A stretch of DNA of 64,000 bases from Escherichia coli. GTDB taxonomy: Bacteria > Pseudomonadota > Gammaproteobacteria > Enterobacterales > Enterobacteriaceae. Positions 1 to 51,245 of this stretch are shown here, piece after piece. Within the stretch, counting starts at the first letter, position 1. Each line of letters begins with the position of its first letter. The position numbers were made by a program, and so were the translations under genes. Below the pieces are notes generated by a model. The model searched no databases and had not been told where the DNA came from. It saw only the letters and a list, made by a program, of their open reading frames with translations. The stretch is taken from NCBI RefSeq assembly GCF_022846255.1, contig NZ_AP025682.1; one strand, given 5' to 3'.

Positions 1-587
1 TTTCTGTCCAGTTCTATTTCATTCCAGTTAGATAAAACAAATTTTTCGTCAAATAACGTAAAAGGTAATACTGCTGTCCAGCCAACAACATAACCATTCC
101 AACCATTCGTTTGACCATATTTAGCTGAGACGTAGTCACCAGATTGATTATGTAATCCAATATACGGTTTAAAAAAGCCCCACTCGCCGTTCCAGCCGAG
201 GTAACCGAATCCATAAAACATATCAAGATCGTCACCCCATGAGTTATCCCATTGGCCATAAATTTTGCCAAAGAATGTCATATCAGAGTCAAAGAGTCTG
301 ACATGCGTCATTGCTGAAACCGTATGATTTCTCCCTGCTACAGCATGATTGAGTACATTACTTTCATAAAATGAGTAAAATTCTGCTTCTTTAAAATTTA
401 CCCCAAAATCCGCAGTCACTTTCCATACTTCACCACGGTGAGTGTTTACAAATCCACTATTCCAGTCTGCATAACCCGCATTTATTGAACCAAAGGTTCC
501 TTTATATTCTAATGAAGAATATGCAGGAAAATGATAGATAGCTGTTATCAGGGTACACGCAATAAGAAGTCGTCTTTTGGCAGACAT
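1..587 (-). CDS. Partial CDS (N-terminal ~195 aa; 3' end lies beyond window start): putative outer-membrane beta-barrel channel, Tsx/OmpK-like
   Basis: Minus-strand ATG at 585-587 opens a frame that runs uninterrupted to position 1. N-terminus MSAKRRLLIACTLITAIYHFPAYS resembles a Sec signal peptide. Mature part is W/Y/G/N/D/F-rich with motifs EAEFYSFYES and GFGYLGWNGEWGFF, reminiscent of Tsx-family porins. AT-rich. Family assignment by eye only. Confidence 0.55.
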   Translation of the reverse strand, partial: MSAKRRLLIACTLITAIYHFPAYSSLEYKGTFGSINAGYADWNSGFVNTHRGEVWKVTADFGVNFKEAEFYSFYESNVLNHAVAGRNHTVSAMTHVRLFDSDMTFFGKIYGQWDNSWGDDLDMFYGFGYLGWNGEWGFFKPYIGLHNQSGDYVSAKYGQTNGWNGYVVGWTAVLPFTLFDEKFVLSNWNEIELDR

Positions 588-1098
588 ATAATATGTTCTC
601 CATTCATTGTTTTTATGATTCCATAGGAATTAATACACCAGACAATTCATTTTTATTAAGAATGACCAGGCCAGTATATTTAAAGATGACTATCGAAGCG
701 TGATGAAGATCGCAGATTACTTTTGCGAACGGGCGGAGAGATATCGTGTTTCAGAAAATGTGTCTGTTTTAAATATCACCCTTTGATTTATAGGCATTTT
801 TCATGATGAACTTAGCATTGACTGCTGAACGTATTTCTTTGTCTCTCTATAGTATTACACTAACCTTTAATAATTAATTTCCTTTAGCTATTCACTTTTG
901 ATAGAGGAAAACACCTTTTTTTGTGAATCCATGGATATTTTTAAGTTAAATAAATTGATGTATTGAAATATTATTCCGTAAAAATGCGAGGCGTCTTCAG
1001 AAAAAGAATTGATAAAACAGAAGTGAATTAAAAGCGCTGTATAATAGCGGCGGGTGCTTGAGGCTATCTGTCTCAGGCATTAGCTGAACGGCAGATAG

Positions 1099-1153
1099 AG
1101 AAAAGCCCCGAGTGATATTTTACCATCAACCCGAGGCCCCCTATATGCTGAAC
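1099..1153 (-). ncRNA. sokC: sokC-like antisense RNA of the hok/sok type I toxin-antitoxin locus (position inferred)
   Basis: Placed antisense to the mokC translation start by analogy with hok/mok/sok loci. Boundaries are not determined from the sequence itself. Confidence 0.4.
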
Positions 1154-1354
1154 ACATGTAGAGTGCCTCTTACTGACCGTAAGGTCAAGGAGAAGAGAGC
1201 AATGAAGCAGCATAAGGCGATGATTGTCGCCCTGATCGTCATCTGTATCACCGCCGTAGTGGCGGCGCTGGTAACGAGAAAAGACCTCTGTGAGGTTCAC
1301 ATCCGAACTGGCCAGACGGAGGTTGCTGTTTTCACGGCTTACGAATCCGAGTAA
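1145..1354 (+). CDS. mokC: MokC, overlapping leader/regulatory ORF of hokC
   Basis: ORF beginning MLNTCRVPLTDRKVKEKRA and reading through the hokC frame; same stop as hokC. Confidence 0.7.
   Translation: MLNTCRVPLTDRKVKEKRAMKQHKAMIVALIVICITAVVAALVTRKDLCEVHIRTGQTEVAVFTAYESE
1202..1354 (+). CDS. hokC: HokC (Gef) type I toxin, 50 aa small membrane peptide
   Basis: Translation MKQHKAMIVALIVICITAVVAALVTRKDLCEVHIRTGQTEVAVFTAYESE is recognised as the Hok/Gef family peptide. Confidence 0.9.
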   Translation: MKQHKAMIVALIVICITAVVAALVTRKDLCEVHIRTGQTEVAVFTAYESE

Positions 1355-1428
1355 GAGCAACGGCGGGGAGTGATCCCCGCCACTTTACAGGTGCTCGCAT
1401 ATCTTCAACGCACCCTGTTTTTTACCTG

Positions 1429-1450
1429 GCCTGCCCACGGGCAGGCTTTT
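1429..1450 (+). terminator. GC-rich hairpin followed by TTTT in the hokC-dnaJ intergenic region; candidate intrinsic terminator
   Basis: Inverted repeat gcctgccc acg ggcaggc followed by tttt. A second GC hairpin at 1362-1384 may serve the convergent dnaJ transcript. Confidence 0.4.
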
Positions 1451-2588: not shown

Positions 2589-2676
2589 CTTTTTTGATTT
2601 GCCCCTAGATGAATGCACGGGCGGAGAGGAAATTCCCCTTCGCCCGTGTCAGTATAATTACCCGTTTATAGGGCGA

Positions 2677-4593
2677 TTATTTTTTGTCTTTGACTTCTTC
2701 AAATTCAGCGTCGACAACATCGTCATCTTTCGCGTTGTTTGCAGAAGCATCAGCACCGGCAGTCTGCTGCTGGGCATGTTGCTGCTGGGCGATTTCCATC
2801 AGTTTCTGGGAAACCTGTGCCAGTTCCTGCATTTTCGCTTCGATAGCGGCTTTGTCTTCACCTTTCAGAGCAGTTTCCAGTGCAGTCAGCGCAGACTCGA
2901 TAGCAGTTTTGTCGTCAGCCGGCAGTTTGTCGCCTGCTTCTTCAACCTGCTTACGGGTGCTGTGCAGCAGATGGTCGCCCTGGTTGCGAGTCTGTACCAG
3001 CTCTTCAAACTTACGGTCAGCTTCGGCGTTAGCTTCTGCGTCGCGTACCATTTTCTGGATTTCATCTTCGTTCAGACCAGAAGAAGCCTTGATAGTGATC
3101 TTCTGCTCTTTACCGCTGTTTTTGTCTTTCGCGGAAACGTGCAGGATACCGTCAGCATCGATATCGAAGGTAACTTCGATCTGCGGCATGCCGCGCGGTG
3201 CCGGGTTGATACCATCCAGGTTGAACTGACCCAGAGATTTGTTATCAGCCGCACGTTTACGTTCACCCTGCAGCACATGGATGGTTACCGCAGACTGGTT
3301 GTCTTCAGCGGTAGAGAACACCTGGCTGTGCTTGGTCGGGATAGTGGTGTTTTTCGCGATCAGCGTGGTCATCACACCGCCCATGGTTTCGATACCCAGA
3401 GACAGCGGGGTAACGTCCAGCAGCAGTACGTCTTTTACGTCACCAGTCAGAACACCACCCTGAACAGCAGCACCGATGGCTACAGCTTCGTCCGGGTTAA
3501 CATCTTTACGCGGCTCTTTACCAAAGAATTCAGCAACTTTCTTCTGAACCATTGGCATACGAGTCTGACCACCAACGAGGATAACGTCGTCGATATCAGA
3601 TACGGACAGGCCAGCGTCCTGCAGTGCAACTTTCAGCGGCTCAATGGAACGGTTTACCAGATCTTCAACCAGGCTTTCCAGTTTCGCACGAGTCACTTTG
3701 ATGTTCATGTGTTTCGGACCGGTCGCGTCTGCAGTGATGTACGGCAGGTTAACGTCGGTCTGCTGAGCGGAAGACAGTTCGATTTTCGCTTTTTCTGCCG
3801 CTTCTTTCAGGCGCTGCATTGCCAGCGGATCGTTGCGCAGGTCAATGCCCTGATCTTTCTTGAATTCTTCAACCAGATAGTTGATCAGACGACTGTCGAA
3901 GTCTTCACCACCCAGGTGGGTATCACCGTTGGTTGCCAGAACTTCGAAGGTTTTTTCGCCGTCAACTTCGTCGATTTCGATAATGGAAATATCGAAAGTA
4001 CCACCACCCAGGTCATAAACCGCGATAGTACGGTTGCCAGTACCTTTGTCCAGACCGTAAGCCAGCGCAGCTGCGGTCGGTTCGTTGATGATACGTTTTA
4101 CTTCCAGACCAGCGATACGGCCTGCGTCTTTGGTTGCCTGACGCTGAGCATCGTTAAAGTATGCCGGTACGGTAATAACAGCTTCAGTTACCGGTTCACC
4201 CAGGTAATCTTCAGCGGTTTTCTTCATTTTTTTCAGCACTTCAGCAGAGATCTGCGGCGGTGCCATTTTCTGGCCTTTAACTTCGACCCATGCGTCGCCG
4301 TTATCAGCAGCAATAATTTTGAACGGCATGATGGAAACATCACGCTGTACTTCTTCGTCCTGGAAGCGGCGGCCAATCAGGCGTTTAATCGCAAACAGGG
4401 TGTTTTGCGGGTTCGTCACTGCCTGACGTTTAGCCGGCTGACCAACCAGAGTTTCACCATCCTGGGTATAGGCAATGATAGAAGGCGTGGTGCGATCGCC
4501 TTCGGCGTTCTCCAGTACACGAGGAGTGGTGCCATCCATAATCGCTACACAAGAGTTGGTAGTACCCAGGTCGATACCAATTATTTTACCCAT
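2677..4593 (-). CDS. dnaK: Chaperone DnaK (Hsp70)
   Basis: 638 aa starting [17 protein letters not shown] with Hsp70 signatures; immediately upstream of dnaJ. Confidence 0.98.
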
Positions 4594-13838: not shown

Positions 13839-16301
13839 TCAGACTCCTAACTTCCATGAGAGGGTACGTAGCAGATCAGCAAAGACACCGGCAGCTGTAA
13901 CGTCATTGCCCGCACCATATCCGCGCAGTACCAACGGCAGCGGCTGATAATAGTGGCTATAGAAGGCCAGGGCGTTTTCGCCATTTTTCACTTTGAACAG
14001 CGGATCATTACCATCCACTTCGGCAATCTTCACGCGGCAGACGCCATCTTCATCAATATTGCCAACATAGCGCAAAACTTTTCCTTCATCACGGGCCTTC
14101 GCCACACGCGCGGCAAAGAGATCGTCGAGCTGTGACAGATTCGCCATAAAAGCGGCGACATCACCCTCGGCGTTAAACTCTGCGGGCAGCACAGGTTCAA
14201 TTTCAATATCCGCCAGCTCCAGTTCACGTCCCGTTTCACGAGCGAGAATCAATAGCTTACGCGCCACATCCATACCAGAAAGATCATCTCGCGGGTCCGG
14301 TTCGGTATAACCCATTTCCCGCGCCAGTGTGGTCGCCTCGGAGAAACTCATGCCTTCGTCTAACTTGCCGAAGATATAAGAAAGCGAACCTGAAAGAATG
14401 CCGGAGAACTTCACCAATTCATCACCTGCATTTAACAGATTTTGCAGGTTCTCAATAACCGGTAATCCAGCCCCAACGTTGGTGTCATAGAGGAATTTAC
14501 GCCGCGATTTTTCCGCCGCATGACGCAACAGATGGTAGTAATCCATCGACGAGGTGTTAGCCTTTTTGTTCGGCGTGACGACGTGGAAACCTTCGCGCAG
14601 GAAGTCAGCATACTGATCCGCCACTGCCTGGCTGGAAGTGCAGTCAACAATGACCGGGTTCAGCAGATGATATTCTTTCACGAGGCGAATTAAGCGCCCG
14701 AGATTAAACGGCTCTTTGGCTTGCGCCAGTTCTTCCTGCCAGTTTTCCAGATTAAGGCCATGTACATTGGTGAGCAGAGCCTTCGAGTTGGCAACACCGC
14801 AGACACGTAAGTCGATATGTTTATTCTTCAGCCAGCTTTGCTGACGCTTCAGTTGCTCCAGCAGCGCACCGCCAACGCCACCGACGCCAATCACAAACAC
14901 TTCGATAACCTGATCGGTATTGAACAGCATCTGATGAGTAACGCGCACGCCAGTGGTCGCATCATCGTTATTTACCACGACAGAGATTGAGCGTTCAGAA
15001 GATCCCTGAGCAATGGCGACAATGTTGATATTGGCGCGGGCCAGTGCGGCAAAGAATTTCGCCGAGATCCCACGCAAGGTGCGCATACCATCACCTACCA
15101 CCGAGATAATGGCCAGCCGTTCCGTCACTGCCAGCGGCTCCAGTAAGCCTTCTTTCAGTTCCAGGTAGAACTCTTCCTGCATTGCCCGTTCAGCTCGCAC
15201 ACAGTCGCTTTGTGGAACGCAGAAACTGATGCTGTATTCGGAAGATGATTGCGTAATCAGCACCACGGAAATACGGGCGCGTGACATCGCTGCAAAGACG
15301 CGCGCCGCCATGCCAACCATCCCTTTCATCCCCGGGCCGGAAACGCTGAACATTGCCATGTTATTCAGATTGGAAATGCCCTTGACCGGTAATTCGTCTT
15401 CATCACGGCTGGCACCAATGAGCGTACCTGGTGCTTGAGGATTTCCGGTATTTTTAATCAGGCAAGGGATCTGGAACTGGGCGATGGGGGTAATGGTGCG
15501 GGGGTGAAGAACTTTAGCGCCGAAATAGGAAAGCTCCATCGCTTCCTGGTAGGACATCGACTTCAACAACCTCGCATCGGGCACCTGACGCGGGTCGCAG
15601 GTATAGACCCCGTCAACGTCCGTCCAAATCTCGCAACAATCGGCGCGTAAACAGGCAGCCAGCACCGCCGCGGAGTAGTCGGAACCGTTGCGTCCAAGCA
15701 CCACCAGTTCGCCTTTTTCATTACCGGCGGTGAAACCTGCCATCAGCACCATGTGATCAGCCGGAATACGACTTGCCGCGATACGGCGAGTGGACTCAGC
15801 AATATCGACGGTAGATTCGAGGTAATGCCCCACTGCCAGCAGTTTTTCGACCGGATCGATAACGGTAACGTTGTGACCACGCGCTTCTAACACGCCGGCC
15901 ATAATGGCGATCGACATTTTCTCGCCACGGCAAATCAGCGCAGCGTTGATGCTATCCGGGCACTGCCCCAACAAACTGATGCCATGCAGGACATGTTTTA
16001 TTTGGGCAAATTCCTGGTCGACGAAAGTTTTCAATTGTGCCAGCGGAAATCCCGGCTGGGCGGCGGCGAGTCCCGTCAGAAGTTCGGCAAAAATACGTTC
16101 GGCATCGCTGATATTGGGTAAAGCATCCTGGCCGCTAATGGTTTTTTCAATCATCGCTACCAGATGGTTGGTGATTTTGGCGGGGGCAGAGAGGACGGTG
16201 GCCACCTGCCCCTGCCTGGCATTGCTTTCCAGAATATCGGCAACCCGCAGAAAACGTTCTGCATTTGCCACTGATGTACCGCCGAACTTCAACACTCGCA
16301 T
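13839..16301 (-). CDS. thrA: Bifunctional aspartokinase I / homoserine dehydrogenase I
   Basis: 820 aa starting [20 protein letters not shown]; ORF-track start trimmed to this Met. Confidence 0.97.
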
Positions 16302-16327
16302 GGTTGTTACCTCGTTACCTTTGGTCG

Positions 16328-16363
16328 AAAAAAAAGCCCGCACTGTCAGGTGCGGGCTTTTTT
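16328..16363 (-). terminator. thr operon attenuator (rho-independent terminator between thrL and thrA)
   Basis: Minus strand reads AAAAAAGCCCGCACCTGACAGTGCGGGC followed by a U-tract, immediately downstream of the thrL stop. Confidence 0.85.
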
Positions 16364-16381
16364 CTGTGTTTCCTGTACGCG

Positions 16382-16450
<69 letters not shown>

Positions 16451-16660
16451 TGTTGTGTACTCTGTAATTTTTATCTGTCTGTGCGCTATGCCTATATTGG
16501 TTAAAGTATTTAGTGACCTAAGTCAATAAAATTTTAATTTACTCACGGCAGGTAACCAGTTCAGAAGCTGCTATCAGACACTCTTTTTTTAATCCACACA
16601 GAGACATATTGCCCGTTGCAGTCAGAATGAAAAGCTGAAAATCACTTACTAAGGCGTTTT

Positions 16661-17347
16661 TTATTTGGTGATATTTTTTTCAATATCATGCAGCAAACGG
16701 TGCAACATTGCCGTGTCTCGTTGCTCTAAAAGCCCCAGGCGTTGTTGTAACCAGTCGACCAGTTTTATGTCATCTGCCACTGCCAGAGTCGTCAGCAATG
16801 TCATGGCTCGTTCGCGTAAAGCTTGCAGTTGATGTTGGTCTGCCGTTGTGTCACTTTTCGCCGGTTGTTGTATTAATGTTGCTAATTGATAGCAATAGAC
16901 CATCACTGCCTGCCCCAGATTGAGCGAAGGATAATCCGCCACCATCGGCACACCAGTAAGAACGTCAGCCAACGCTAACTCTTCGTTAGTCAGCCCGGAA
17001 TCTTCGCGACCAAACACCAGAGCGGCATGGCTCATCCATGAAGATTTTTCCTCTAACAGCGGCACCAGTTCTACTGGCGTAGCGTAGTAATGATATTTCG
17101 CCCGACTGCGCGCAGTGGTGGCAACAGTGAAATCGACATCGTGTAACGATTCAGCTAGTGTCTTGAAAACTTTAATATTATCAATAATATCACCAGATCC
17201 ATGTGCGACCCAGCGGGTGGCTGGCTCCAGGTGTGCCTGACTATCAACAATCCGCAGTTCGCTAAAACCCATCGTTTTCATTGCCCGCGCCGCTGCCCCA
17301 ATATTTTCTGCTCTGGCGGGTGCAACCAGAATAATCGTTATACGCAT
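16661..17347 (-). CDS. lasT: SpoU-family tRNA/rRNA methyltransferase LasT (YjtD)
   Basis: 228 aa starting MRITIILVAPARAENIGAAARA; ORF-track start trimmed. Confidence 0.85.
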   Translation of the reverse strand: MRITIILVAPARAENIGAAARAMKTMGFSELRIVDSQAHLEPATRWVAHGSGDIIDNIKVFKTLAESLHDVDFTVATTARSRAKYHYYATPVELVPLLEEKSSWMSHAALVFGREDSGLTNEELALADVLTGVPMVADYPSLNLGQAVMVYCYQLATLIQQPAKSDTTADQHQLQALRERAMTLLTTLAVADDIKLVDWLQQRLGLLEQRDTAMLHRLLHDIEKNITK

Positions 17348-42915: not shown

Positions 42916-43907
<992 letters not shown>

Positions 43908-50922: not shown

Positions 50923-51009
50923 GCGAAGGTGGCGGAATTGGTAGACGCGCTAGCTTCAGGTGTTAGTGTCCTTACGGACGTGGGGGTTCAAGTCCCCCCC
51001 CTCGCACCA
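50923..51009 (+). tRNA. leuQ: tRNA-Leu (anticodon CAG), copy 1
   Basis: 87-nt sequence GCGAAGGTGGCGGAATTGGTAGACGCGCTAGCTTCAGGTGTTAGTGTCCTTACGGACGTGGGGGTTCAAGTCCCCCCCCTCGCACCA with long variable arm and encoded CCA. Confidence 0.95.
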
Positions 51010-51037
51010 AAAACCACGTTGATATTGCTCGCACTGG

Positions 51038-51124
51038 GCGAAGGTGGCGGAATTGGTAGACGCGCTAGCTTCAGGTGTTAGTGTTCTTACGGACGTGGGG
51101 GTTCAAGTCCCCCCCCTCGCACCA
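51038..51124 (+). tRNA. leuP: tRNA-Leu (anticodon CAG), copy 2, with one substitution in the variable arm
   Basis: Identical to copies 1 and 3 except T instead of C at window position 51085 (GTGTTCTTAC versus GTGTCCTTAC). Confidence 0.95.
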
Positions 51125-51158
51125 AACGAGGCGATATCAAAAAAAGTAAGATGACTGT

Positions 51159-51245
51159 GCGAAGGTGGCGGAATTGGTAGACGCGCTAGCTTCAGGTGTT
51201 AGTGTCCTTACGGACGTGGGGGTTCAAGTCCCCCCCCTCGCACCA
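51159..51245 (+). tRNA. leuV: tRNA-Leu (anticodon CAG), copy 3
   Basis: 87 nt, identical to copy 1. Confidence 0.95.

Follow-up and report, generated by a model that had tools for sequence, protein, structure and literature searches.

A single palindromic piece of DNA directly downstream of hokC very probably has two roles, as a hairpin in the hokC mRNA and as a preferred target of the insertion sequence IS186, a target that is unoccupied here and in its ancestral condition. The window, by which we mean the whole 64-kb stretch of Escherichia coli DNA that was analysed, contains one match to the IS186 target motif GGGG-N6-CCCC, GGGGAGTGATCCCC at positions 1365–1378, with a 6-bp core of AGTGAT. 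This motif is nested in the palindromic string cGGCGGGGAGTGATCCCCGCC at positions 1361–1381; the preliminary description had quoted the string as cggcGGGGagtgatCCCCgcc, which is present at 1361–1381, and only the coordinates given for it, 1362–1384, were trivially offset. At the RNA level, the palindrome would form a GC-rich hairpin after the hokC stop codon and thereby the 3'-terminal stem of the processed, translatable hokC mRNA. Judging from the homology with hok of plasmid R1, such a terminal stem would guard the processed mRNA from 3'-to-5' exonucleases, with the fold-back inhibition (fbi) element and the terminator lying downstream of it. At the DNA level, the GGGG-N6-CCCC sequence would act as a preferred IS186 target. 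With the site unoccupied, the window has an intact hokC/sokC locus that retains the whole of its 3' regulatory region. K-12 and about 30% of the complete E. coli genomes carry IS186 here, in either orientation; the insertion splits the hairpin and leaves the fbi element and the terminator detached from the reading frame of hokC.

The hokC gene of the window is intact and encodes 50 amino acids on the plus strand (1202–1354, stop codon 1352–1354), as indicated by the list of open reading frames and by the annotation of matching genomes. The encoded protein, a Hok/Gef-family toxin of the typical length of about 50 residues, has the same sequence as the K-12 hokC translation. On the same strand, mokC is the in-frame upstream extension of hokC according to the mokC/hokC annotation in matching genomes, which label the locus mokC, type I toxin-antitoxin system toxin. 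The 5' leader of the hokC mRNA (1052–1204, plus strand) includes the tac element (1052–1063) and the mok SD region, and the conserved sok antisense region is recognizable in it as a full-length match to the Rfam family RF01794 (sok) at 1052–1204, with 120.5 bits (gathering score, 59). The sokC antisense RNA lies on the minus strand at approximately 1094–1152, a position transferred from the K-12 annotation. Convergent with hokC, dnaJ occupies 1458–2588 on the minus strand with its stop codon at 1458–1460 (the open reading frame of 1458–2618 has a DnaJ sequence, and the gene is annotated as 1131 nt in matching genomes), and dnaK is located at 2677–4593, also on the minus strand; the orientation of the window is the reverse of the usual K-12 orientation. 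The spacer between hokC and dnaJ measures 103 bp, close to the earlier estimate of about 100 bp. The closest match of the window is strain 2013C-4282, with 99.9% identity.

In an Rfam scan of positions 800–1600 at a permissive threshold, sok was the sole family found; a hit of rpsL_pseudo over the hairpin region, with 19.6 bits (gathering score, 70) and E = 0.17, was rejected as a chance match. Other Rfam matches in the window comprise the tpke11 sRNA between dnaK and dnaJ (2589–2666, minus strand), as well as the leader of the thr operon, two naRNA4 repeats, and a tandem array of three tRNA genes, which together have the coordinates 16327–16446 (minus), 42954–43132 (minus), and 50923–51242 (plus). 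The left end of the window (1–934) is AT-rich, with a GC content of 0.30–0.41, and contains the 3' portion of a minus-strand gene for an ompK/tsx-like outer-membrane protein; this gene reaches to 588 and continues past the left end of the window. In the near-identical strain 2013C-4282, genes for a sulfatase and an IS1-like zinc-binding protein come after the ompK/tsx-like gene. The homology to K-12 begins only around position 934, and for most E. coli genomes the alignment starts no earlier than 1005. This segment looks like an accessory island adjoining the promoter side of hokC/sokC; K-12 has nhaA there.

The hairpin GGCGGGGA-GUGA-UCCCCGCC in the 3' UTR of the hokC mRNA (1362–1381, plus strand) contains eight base pairs and starts 8 nt after the stop codon. 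Folded alone, it has a predicted energy of −18.5 kcal/mol with a z-score of −4.95. In the fold of the predicted full-length hokC mRNA (1041–1450), which has a minimum free energy (MFE) of −168.3 kcal/mol and a z-score of −6.47, the probabilities of the hairpin pairs range from 0.956 to 1.0; seven of the eight pairs reach at least 0.98, and the closing A-U pair has the lowest value of 0.956. In the same MFE fold, the tac sequence GGGUGCUUGAGG (1052–1063) pairs with CUUCAA-C-GCACCC (1403–1415), that is, with the predicted fbi element CUUCAACGCACCC on the plus strand. A long-range interaction between tac and fbi is typical of hok mRNAs, and the pairing of a 5' tac with a 3' fbi is predicted for the mRNA of the window as well. 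A further hairpin, GGCCUGCC-CACG-GGCAGGCU followed by UUUU (1428–1450, plus strand), adjoins the dnaJ stop codon and, in this structural model, is the likely terminator of the hokC mRNA; a simple terminator scan did not flag 1428–1450 because its T run comprises only four residues.

The position of the palindrome between two convergent genes and its predicted stability on both strands (−18.5 and −19.3 kcal/mol) would also be expected of a plain terminator for hokC or for dnaJ, in which case the match to the IS186 motif would be incidental. However, the stem is followed by ACUUUACAGG on the plus strand and by GUUGCUCUUAC on the minus strand, so that there is no U-tract after 1381 (plus) or 1362 (minus), and the terminator scan did not flag the palindrome. 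Since a U-tract is missing on either strand and the scan was negative, the palindrome is not a classical terminator, and the hairpin with UUUU at 1428–1450 is the better candidate for that function in hokC. An incidental match to the motif is also at odds with the roughly 1,600 genomes that have IS186 at precisely this position and with its insertion into the corresponding hairpin of a further two hok genes. We therefore consider this explanation improbable and retain the assignment of the palindrome to both a hok-mRNA hairpin and an IS186 target.

The target of IS186 is GGGG(N6/N7)CCCC, whose core is duplicated on insertion and which is used in either orientation (Lee et al. 2016, NAR, PMC5009759). 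The K-12 genome contains only 19 N6 and 35 N7 target sites of this kind (PMC5009759), and the target site of IS186 was also addressed by Sengstag et al. 1986, as cited in PMC3562002. The sequence GGGGAGTGATCCCC at 1365–1378 fits the N6 form of this published motif. The motif is not significantly enriched in the 64 kb, with one observed match against 0.54 expected, and at least one match to GGGG-N6-CCCC occurred in 38 of 100 shuffled sequences. These numbers would be in line with a chance GC-rich palindrome devoid of biological meaning, but the exact coincidence with the insertion point and the duplication of IS186 in K-12, together with the conservation of the palindrome after the hok stop codon across genera, leave that reading with next to no likelihood. 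What gives the motif its meaning is homology: its position agrees with the insertion point of K-12 IS186A down to the single base.

In MG1655, IS186A is annotated at 15387–16731 and its gene insL1 at 15445–16557, between dnaJ and mokC/hokC. The preliminary description had placed an IS186 (insL1) between dnaJ and hokC of K-12 at about 15.4–16.7 kb, and both the element and its coordinates are correct. In the orientation of the window, AACGGCGGGGAGTGATCCC is joined to ATAAGCGC at one K-12 junction and GCGCTTAT to GGGAGTGATCCCCGCCACTTT at the other, with IS186 in between; in an alternative rendering, the same junctions read GAGTAAGAGCAACGGCGGGGAGTGATCCC joined to ATAAGCGCTAACTTAAGGGTTG and CAACCCTTAAGTTAGCGCTTAT joined to GGGAGTGATCCCCGCCACTTTACAGG. 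A 12-base direct repeat, GGGAGTGATCCC, which corresponds to 1366–1377 of the window, lies on either side of IS186 in K-12 and other strains. The target duplication reads as 6, 10, or 12 bp according to the placement of the IS ends; when the ends are drawn as CCCATAAG and CTTATGGG, the duplication is the 6-bp core AGTGAT between GGGG and CCCC. After removal of the IS and one 12-bp repeat, K-12 is 98.0% identical to the window over 2.3 kb. The alignment with MG1655 around insL1, which had been proposed as a check, places both IS186 flanks and the 12-bp repeat GGGAGTGATCCC on the motif. It bears out the earlier suggestion that the motif is the target used by IS186 in K-12, as the insertion sits at the exact position and fits the published GGGG(N6/N7)CCCC. 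The claim that the strain is not K-12-like at this locus agrees with the empty site and with the best match to 2013C-4282 at 99.9%.

We queried 5,426 complete E. coli genomes with a 701-bp sequence spanning the site. The sequence is contiguous, and the site hence empty, in 3,814 genomes (approximately 70%); in the remaining genomes, the query breaks at its positions 367–378, which are the motif. With queries for the dnaJ-side junction, 672 of the 5,426 genomes proved to have IS186 at hokC oriented as in K-12 and 923 to have it inverted, and the three states together account for 5,409 genomes. We used the dnaJ side for these counts as it is free of paralogs and sums cleanly; the counts from the hokC side (820 and 939) were dropped since they are inflated by IS186-bearing hok paralogs and plasmid hok genes. 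Many of the 672 genomes with the K-12 orientation are K-12 laboratory derivatives, but they also include natural isolates, for example CV839-06, O169:H41 2014EL-1345-2, and GB089. In NDM5 and P13-6, IS186 occupies the same position with the repeat GGGAGTGATCCC, inverted relative to K-12. Thus, relatives of the window strain carry IS186 at the exact position of the motif, as seen both in the junctions of K-12, NDM5, and P13-6 and in the 672 and 923 genomes. The two orientations at one position imply at least two independent insertions and make the site a genuine hot spot. NDM5 additionally carries an IS150 transposase gene directly upstream of hokC, so that with IS186 downstream the locus is bracketed by two different ISs. 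The empty state, found in about 70% of the genomes, says little about the strain of the window beyond its not being K-12. As a marker, the site cleanly scores presence, absence, and orientation of IS186 and separates K-12-type lineages from other E. coli.

We also searched one genome per species with the hok-side flank and the stem fixed and the loop left free. The empty arrangement of hokC, hairpin, and convergent dnaJ was found, without an IS, in E. albertii, Escherichia sp. E1V33, and E. coli SCPM-O-B-8794. Its presence in E. albertii and Escherichia sp. E1V33 indicates that the arrangement predates E. coli; on this sequence comparison, the empty site is the ancestral state, and the ancestral empty site postulated at the outset is supported by two outgroup genomes that both lack the IS. 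Twelve chance GC-rich matches at 11 loci (in Lysobacter, Myxococcota, Clostridia, Oscillospiraceae MAGs, and others) had no hok upstream and were ignored. A precise excision of IS186 from a once-occupied lineage would recreate an identical sequence, with which the window alone is compatible, and one of the 857 events catalogued by Lee et al. was an IS excision (PMC5009759). However, excision is far rarer than insertion in the same data (PMC5009759), and the site is empty in about 70% of the complete E. coli genomes as well as in E. albertii and Escherichia sp. E1V33. In addition, IS186 terminal repeats are absent from the entire window, hokC and dnaJ are contiguous with a single copy of the core, and neither IS186 sequence nor an IS186 footprint is present at the site. 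An empty site produced by excision is thus highly improbable, and we keep to the ancestral one.

The hairpin after the hok stop codon is also present in Pseudocitrobacter, in Enterobacter with a divergent Hok, and in many hok copies of Photorhabdus. In the species matches the stem GGCGGGG-N6-CCCCGCC is identical and the loops are AGTGAT, AGCAAT, AGTCAT, AACAAT, AGCGAT, AGTAAT, and TGTGAT; these matches were chosen by a pattern with a fixed stem and demonstrate loop variation only. Independent evidence for the conservation of the stem comes from just four paralog classes. The post-stop hairpin is UGCGGGGA-GUAA-UCCCCGCA in hokE, ACGCGGGG-GUAAAA-CCCCGCGU in the hok gene adjacent to cysH, and GGCGGGC-GCAG-GCCCGCC in the R1-type plasmid hok. 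All three, hokE, the cysH-linked hok, and the R1-type hok, possess a GC hairpin of 7–8 bp in the same place, and the pairs are kept via two-sided changes, such as the change of the outer pair from G-C to U-A. A GC-rich stem-loop after the hokC stop codon is thus present, predicted to be stable, and conserved. In Photorhabdus genomes, for example that of Photorhabdus thracensis, multiple copies of hok cluster in a segment of a few kb; GGCGGGG-N6-CCCCGCC follows the stop codon of each copy, and these hairpins contain the canonical IS186-type motif. The preliminary description had missed that the palindrome is a conserved hok-mRNA hairpin, that insertions occur in both orientations, and that approximately 70% of the genomes are empty.

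At the IS186 junction, the predicted local folding weakens from −23.1 to about −10 kcal/mol. The insertion splits the stem and displaces the segment 1382–1402, the fbi element, and the terminator by approximately 1.34 kb from the hokC reading frame. According to PMC3562002, the IS186 element downstream of gef/hokC presumably disrupts fbi and the processing of the mRNA, and K-12 gef is nonetheless transcribed and under antisense RNA regulation. From this literature, we infer that IS186 impairs the normal regulation of hokC.

Insertions into the same structural element were observed at other hok genes. In K-12 hokE, IS186 is located in the post-stop hairpin at GGGG-AGTAAT-CCCC with the 12-bp repeat GGGAGTAATCCC, and in strain NT1F10, it is located in the hairpin of the cysH/cas3-linked hok at GGGG-GTAAAA-CCCC with the 12-bp repeat GGGGTAAAACCC. 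Of the 5,426 genomes, 2,899 have the reconstructed empty hokE site uninterrupted and 2,264 that of the cysH-linked hok, and in the sampled matches of other genomes, the breaks fall at the hairpin of these sites. On the plasmid pPCP06102_contig_2, IS186 is also found at a hok post-stop hairpin, where GGCGGGGAGAGATCCC abuts the IS; the far side of the IS lacks the matching repeat and runs into a mer operon, which suggests a later IS-mediated rearrangement.

It is possible, and we propose it only tentatively, that the terminal GC stem of hok-family mRNAs is a family-wide, recurrent landing pad for IS186. The need of the hok RNA for a strong G/C stem would give rise to GGGG-N6-CCCC, and IS186 would consequently remove the 3' regulatory region of chromosomal hok genes again and again. 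The cases in point are hokC, with insertions in two orientations in about 30% of the complete genomes, hokE, and the cysH-linked hok. If such insertions are selected and not merely tolerated, they would represent a general natural route to silence or re-tune chromosomal type I toxins, and, if true, the proposal would go some way towards explaining why E. coli keeps IS186 target sites, a question posed by Lee et al. In conceptual terms, the site illustrates how a structure required at the RNA level can turn a DNA sequence into a hot spot for transposons.

The role ascribed to the stem derives from hok of plasmid R1. Among 22 loss-of-function substitutions in the R1 hok 3' UTR, 19 break CG pairs of Tr-hok mRNA's terminal stem, among them G345A and C358A; Tr-hok mRNA is missing from these two mutants, for which the authors blame 3'-to-5' exonucleases, for example PNPase (Le Rhun et al. 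2022, PMC9841398). The Tr-hok terminal stem-loop of R1 is also attributed to Franch, Gultyaev & Gerdes 1997, as cited. In the R1-type locus, the post-stop hairpin spans mRNA positions 337–354, and positions 345 and 358 of R1 are a G and a C inside this hairpin after an offset of 4–5 nt; this numbering was matched on an IncFII variant with an inferred offset, in place of the R1 sequence itself. The R1 terminal stem resembles that of hokC in being GC-rich and 7–8 bp long, with a 4-nt loop, and in lying shortly after the stop codon and upstream of fbi, and a long-range pairing of tac and fbi is predicted in both mRNAs. The stems differ in sequence, with GGCGGGGA/UCCCCGCC in hokC and GGCGGGC/GCCCGCC in R1; the R1 stem reads GGG-N6-CCC and hence is not a canonical IS186 site. 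By this analogy, the hairpin of the window appears to be a positional homolog of the R1 stem, which terminates and stabilizes the processed hok mRNA, and the hairpin may protect the processed hokC mRNA in the same manner. An intact chromosomal hokC, that of ECOR24, reportedly confers no post-segregational killing (bioRxiv 10.1101/2025.08.07.668861).

The IS186 target rule, the insertion in K-12, and its presumed effect on hokC regulation are already published. What is added here is modest: the IS186 motif and the terminal stem of hok are linked at the level of single bases, both orientations are documented, and population frequencies are given. Like the published IS186 targets, the site of the window has the exact motif and receives insertions in both orientations among genomes. 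In the sites of Lee et al. and in the window site alike, the length of the duplication is ambiguous because the IS ends (…CCC/GGG…) overlap the target. The window site represents a natural polymorphism, whereas Lee et al. scored theirs during mutation accumulation, but there is no difference in kind; in the K-12-derived founder strain of that study, the hokC site would have been occupied from the start. Compared with K-12 IS186A, the window shares the locus, the insertion point, and the flanking sequence, and only its allele is uninterrupted; the commonest occupied allele (923 versus 672 genomes) has IS186 inverted relative to IS186A. In 1999, Pedersen and Gerdes are said to have reported in Mol Microbiol that K-12 hokA, hokC, and hokE are inactivated by IS150 or IS186 located near, and outside, their reading frames. 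Of the interrupted hok loci of K-12, hokC and hokE both have IS186 just past the reading frame. Beyond the reports on K-12 hok loci, the comparison presented here gives the exact position of the insertions in the hairpin, a third locus in the hok gene next to cysH/cas3, and the population frequencies.
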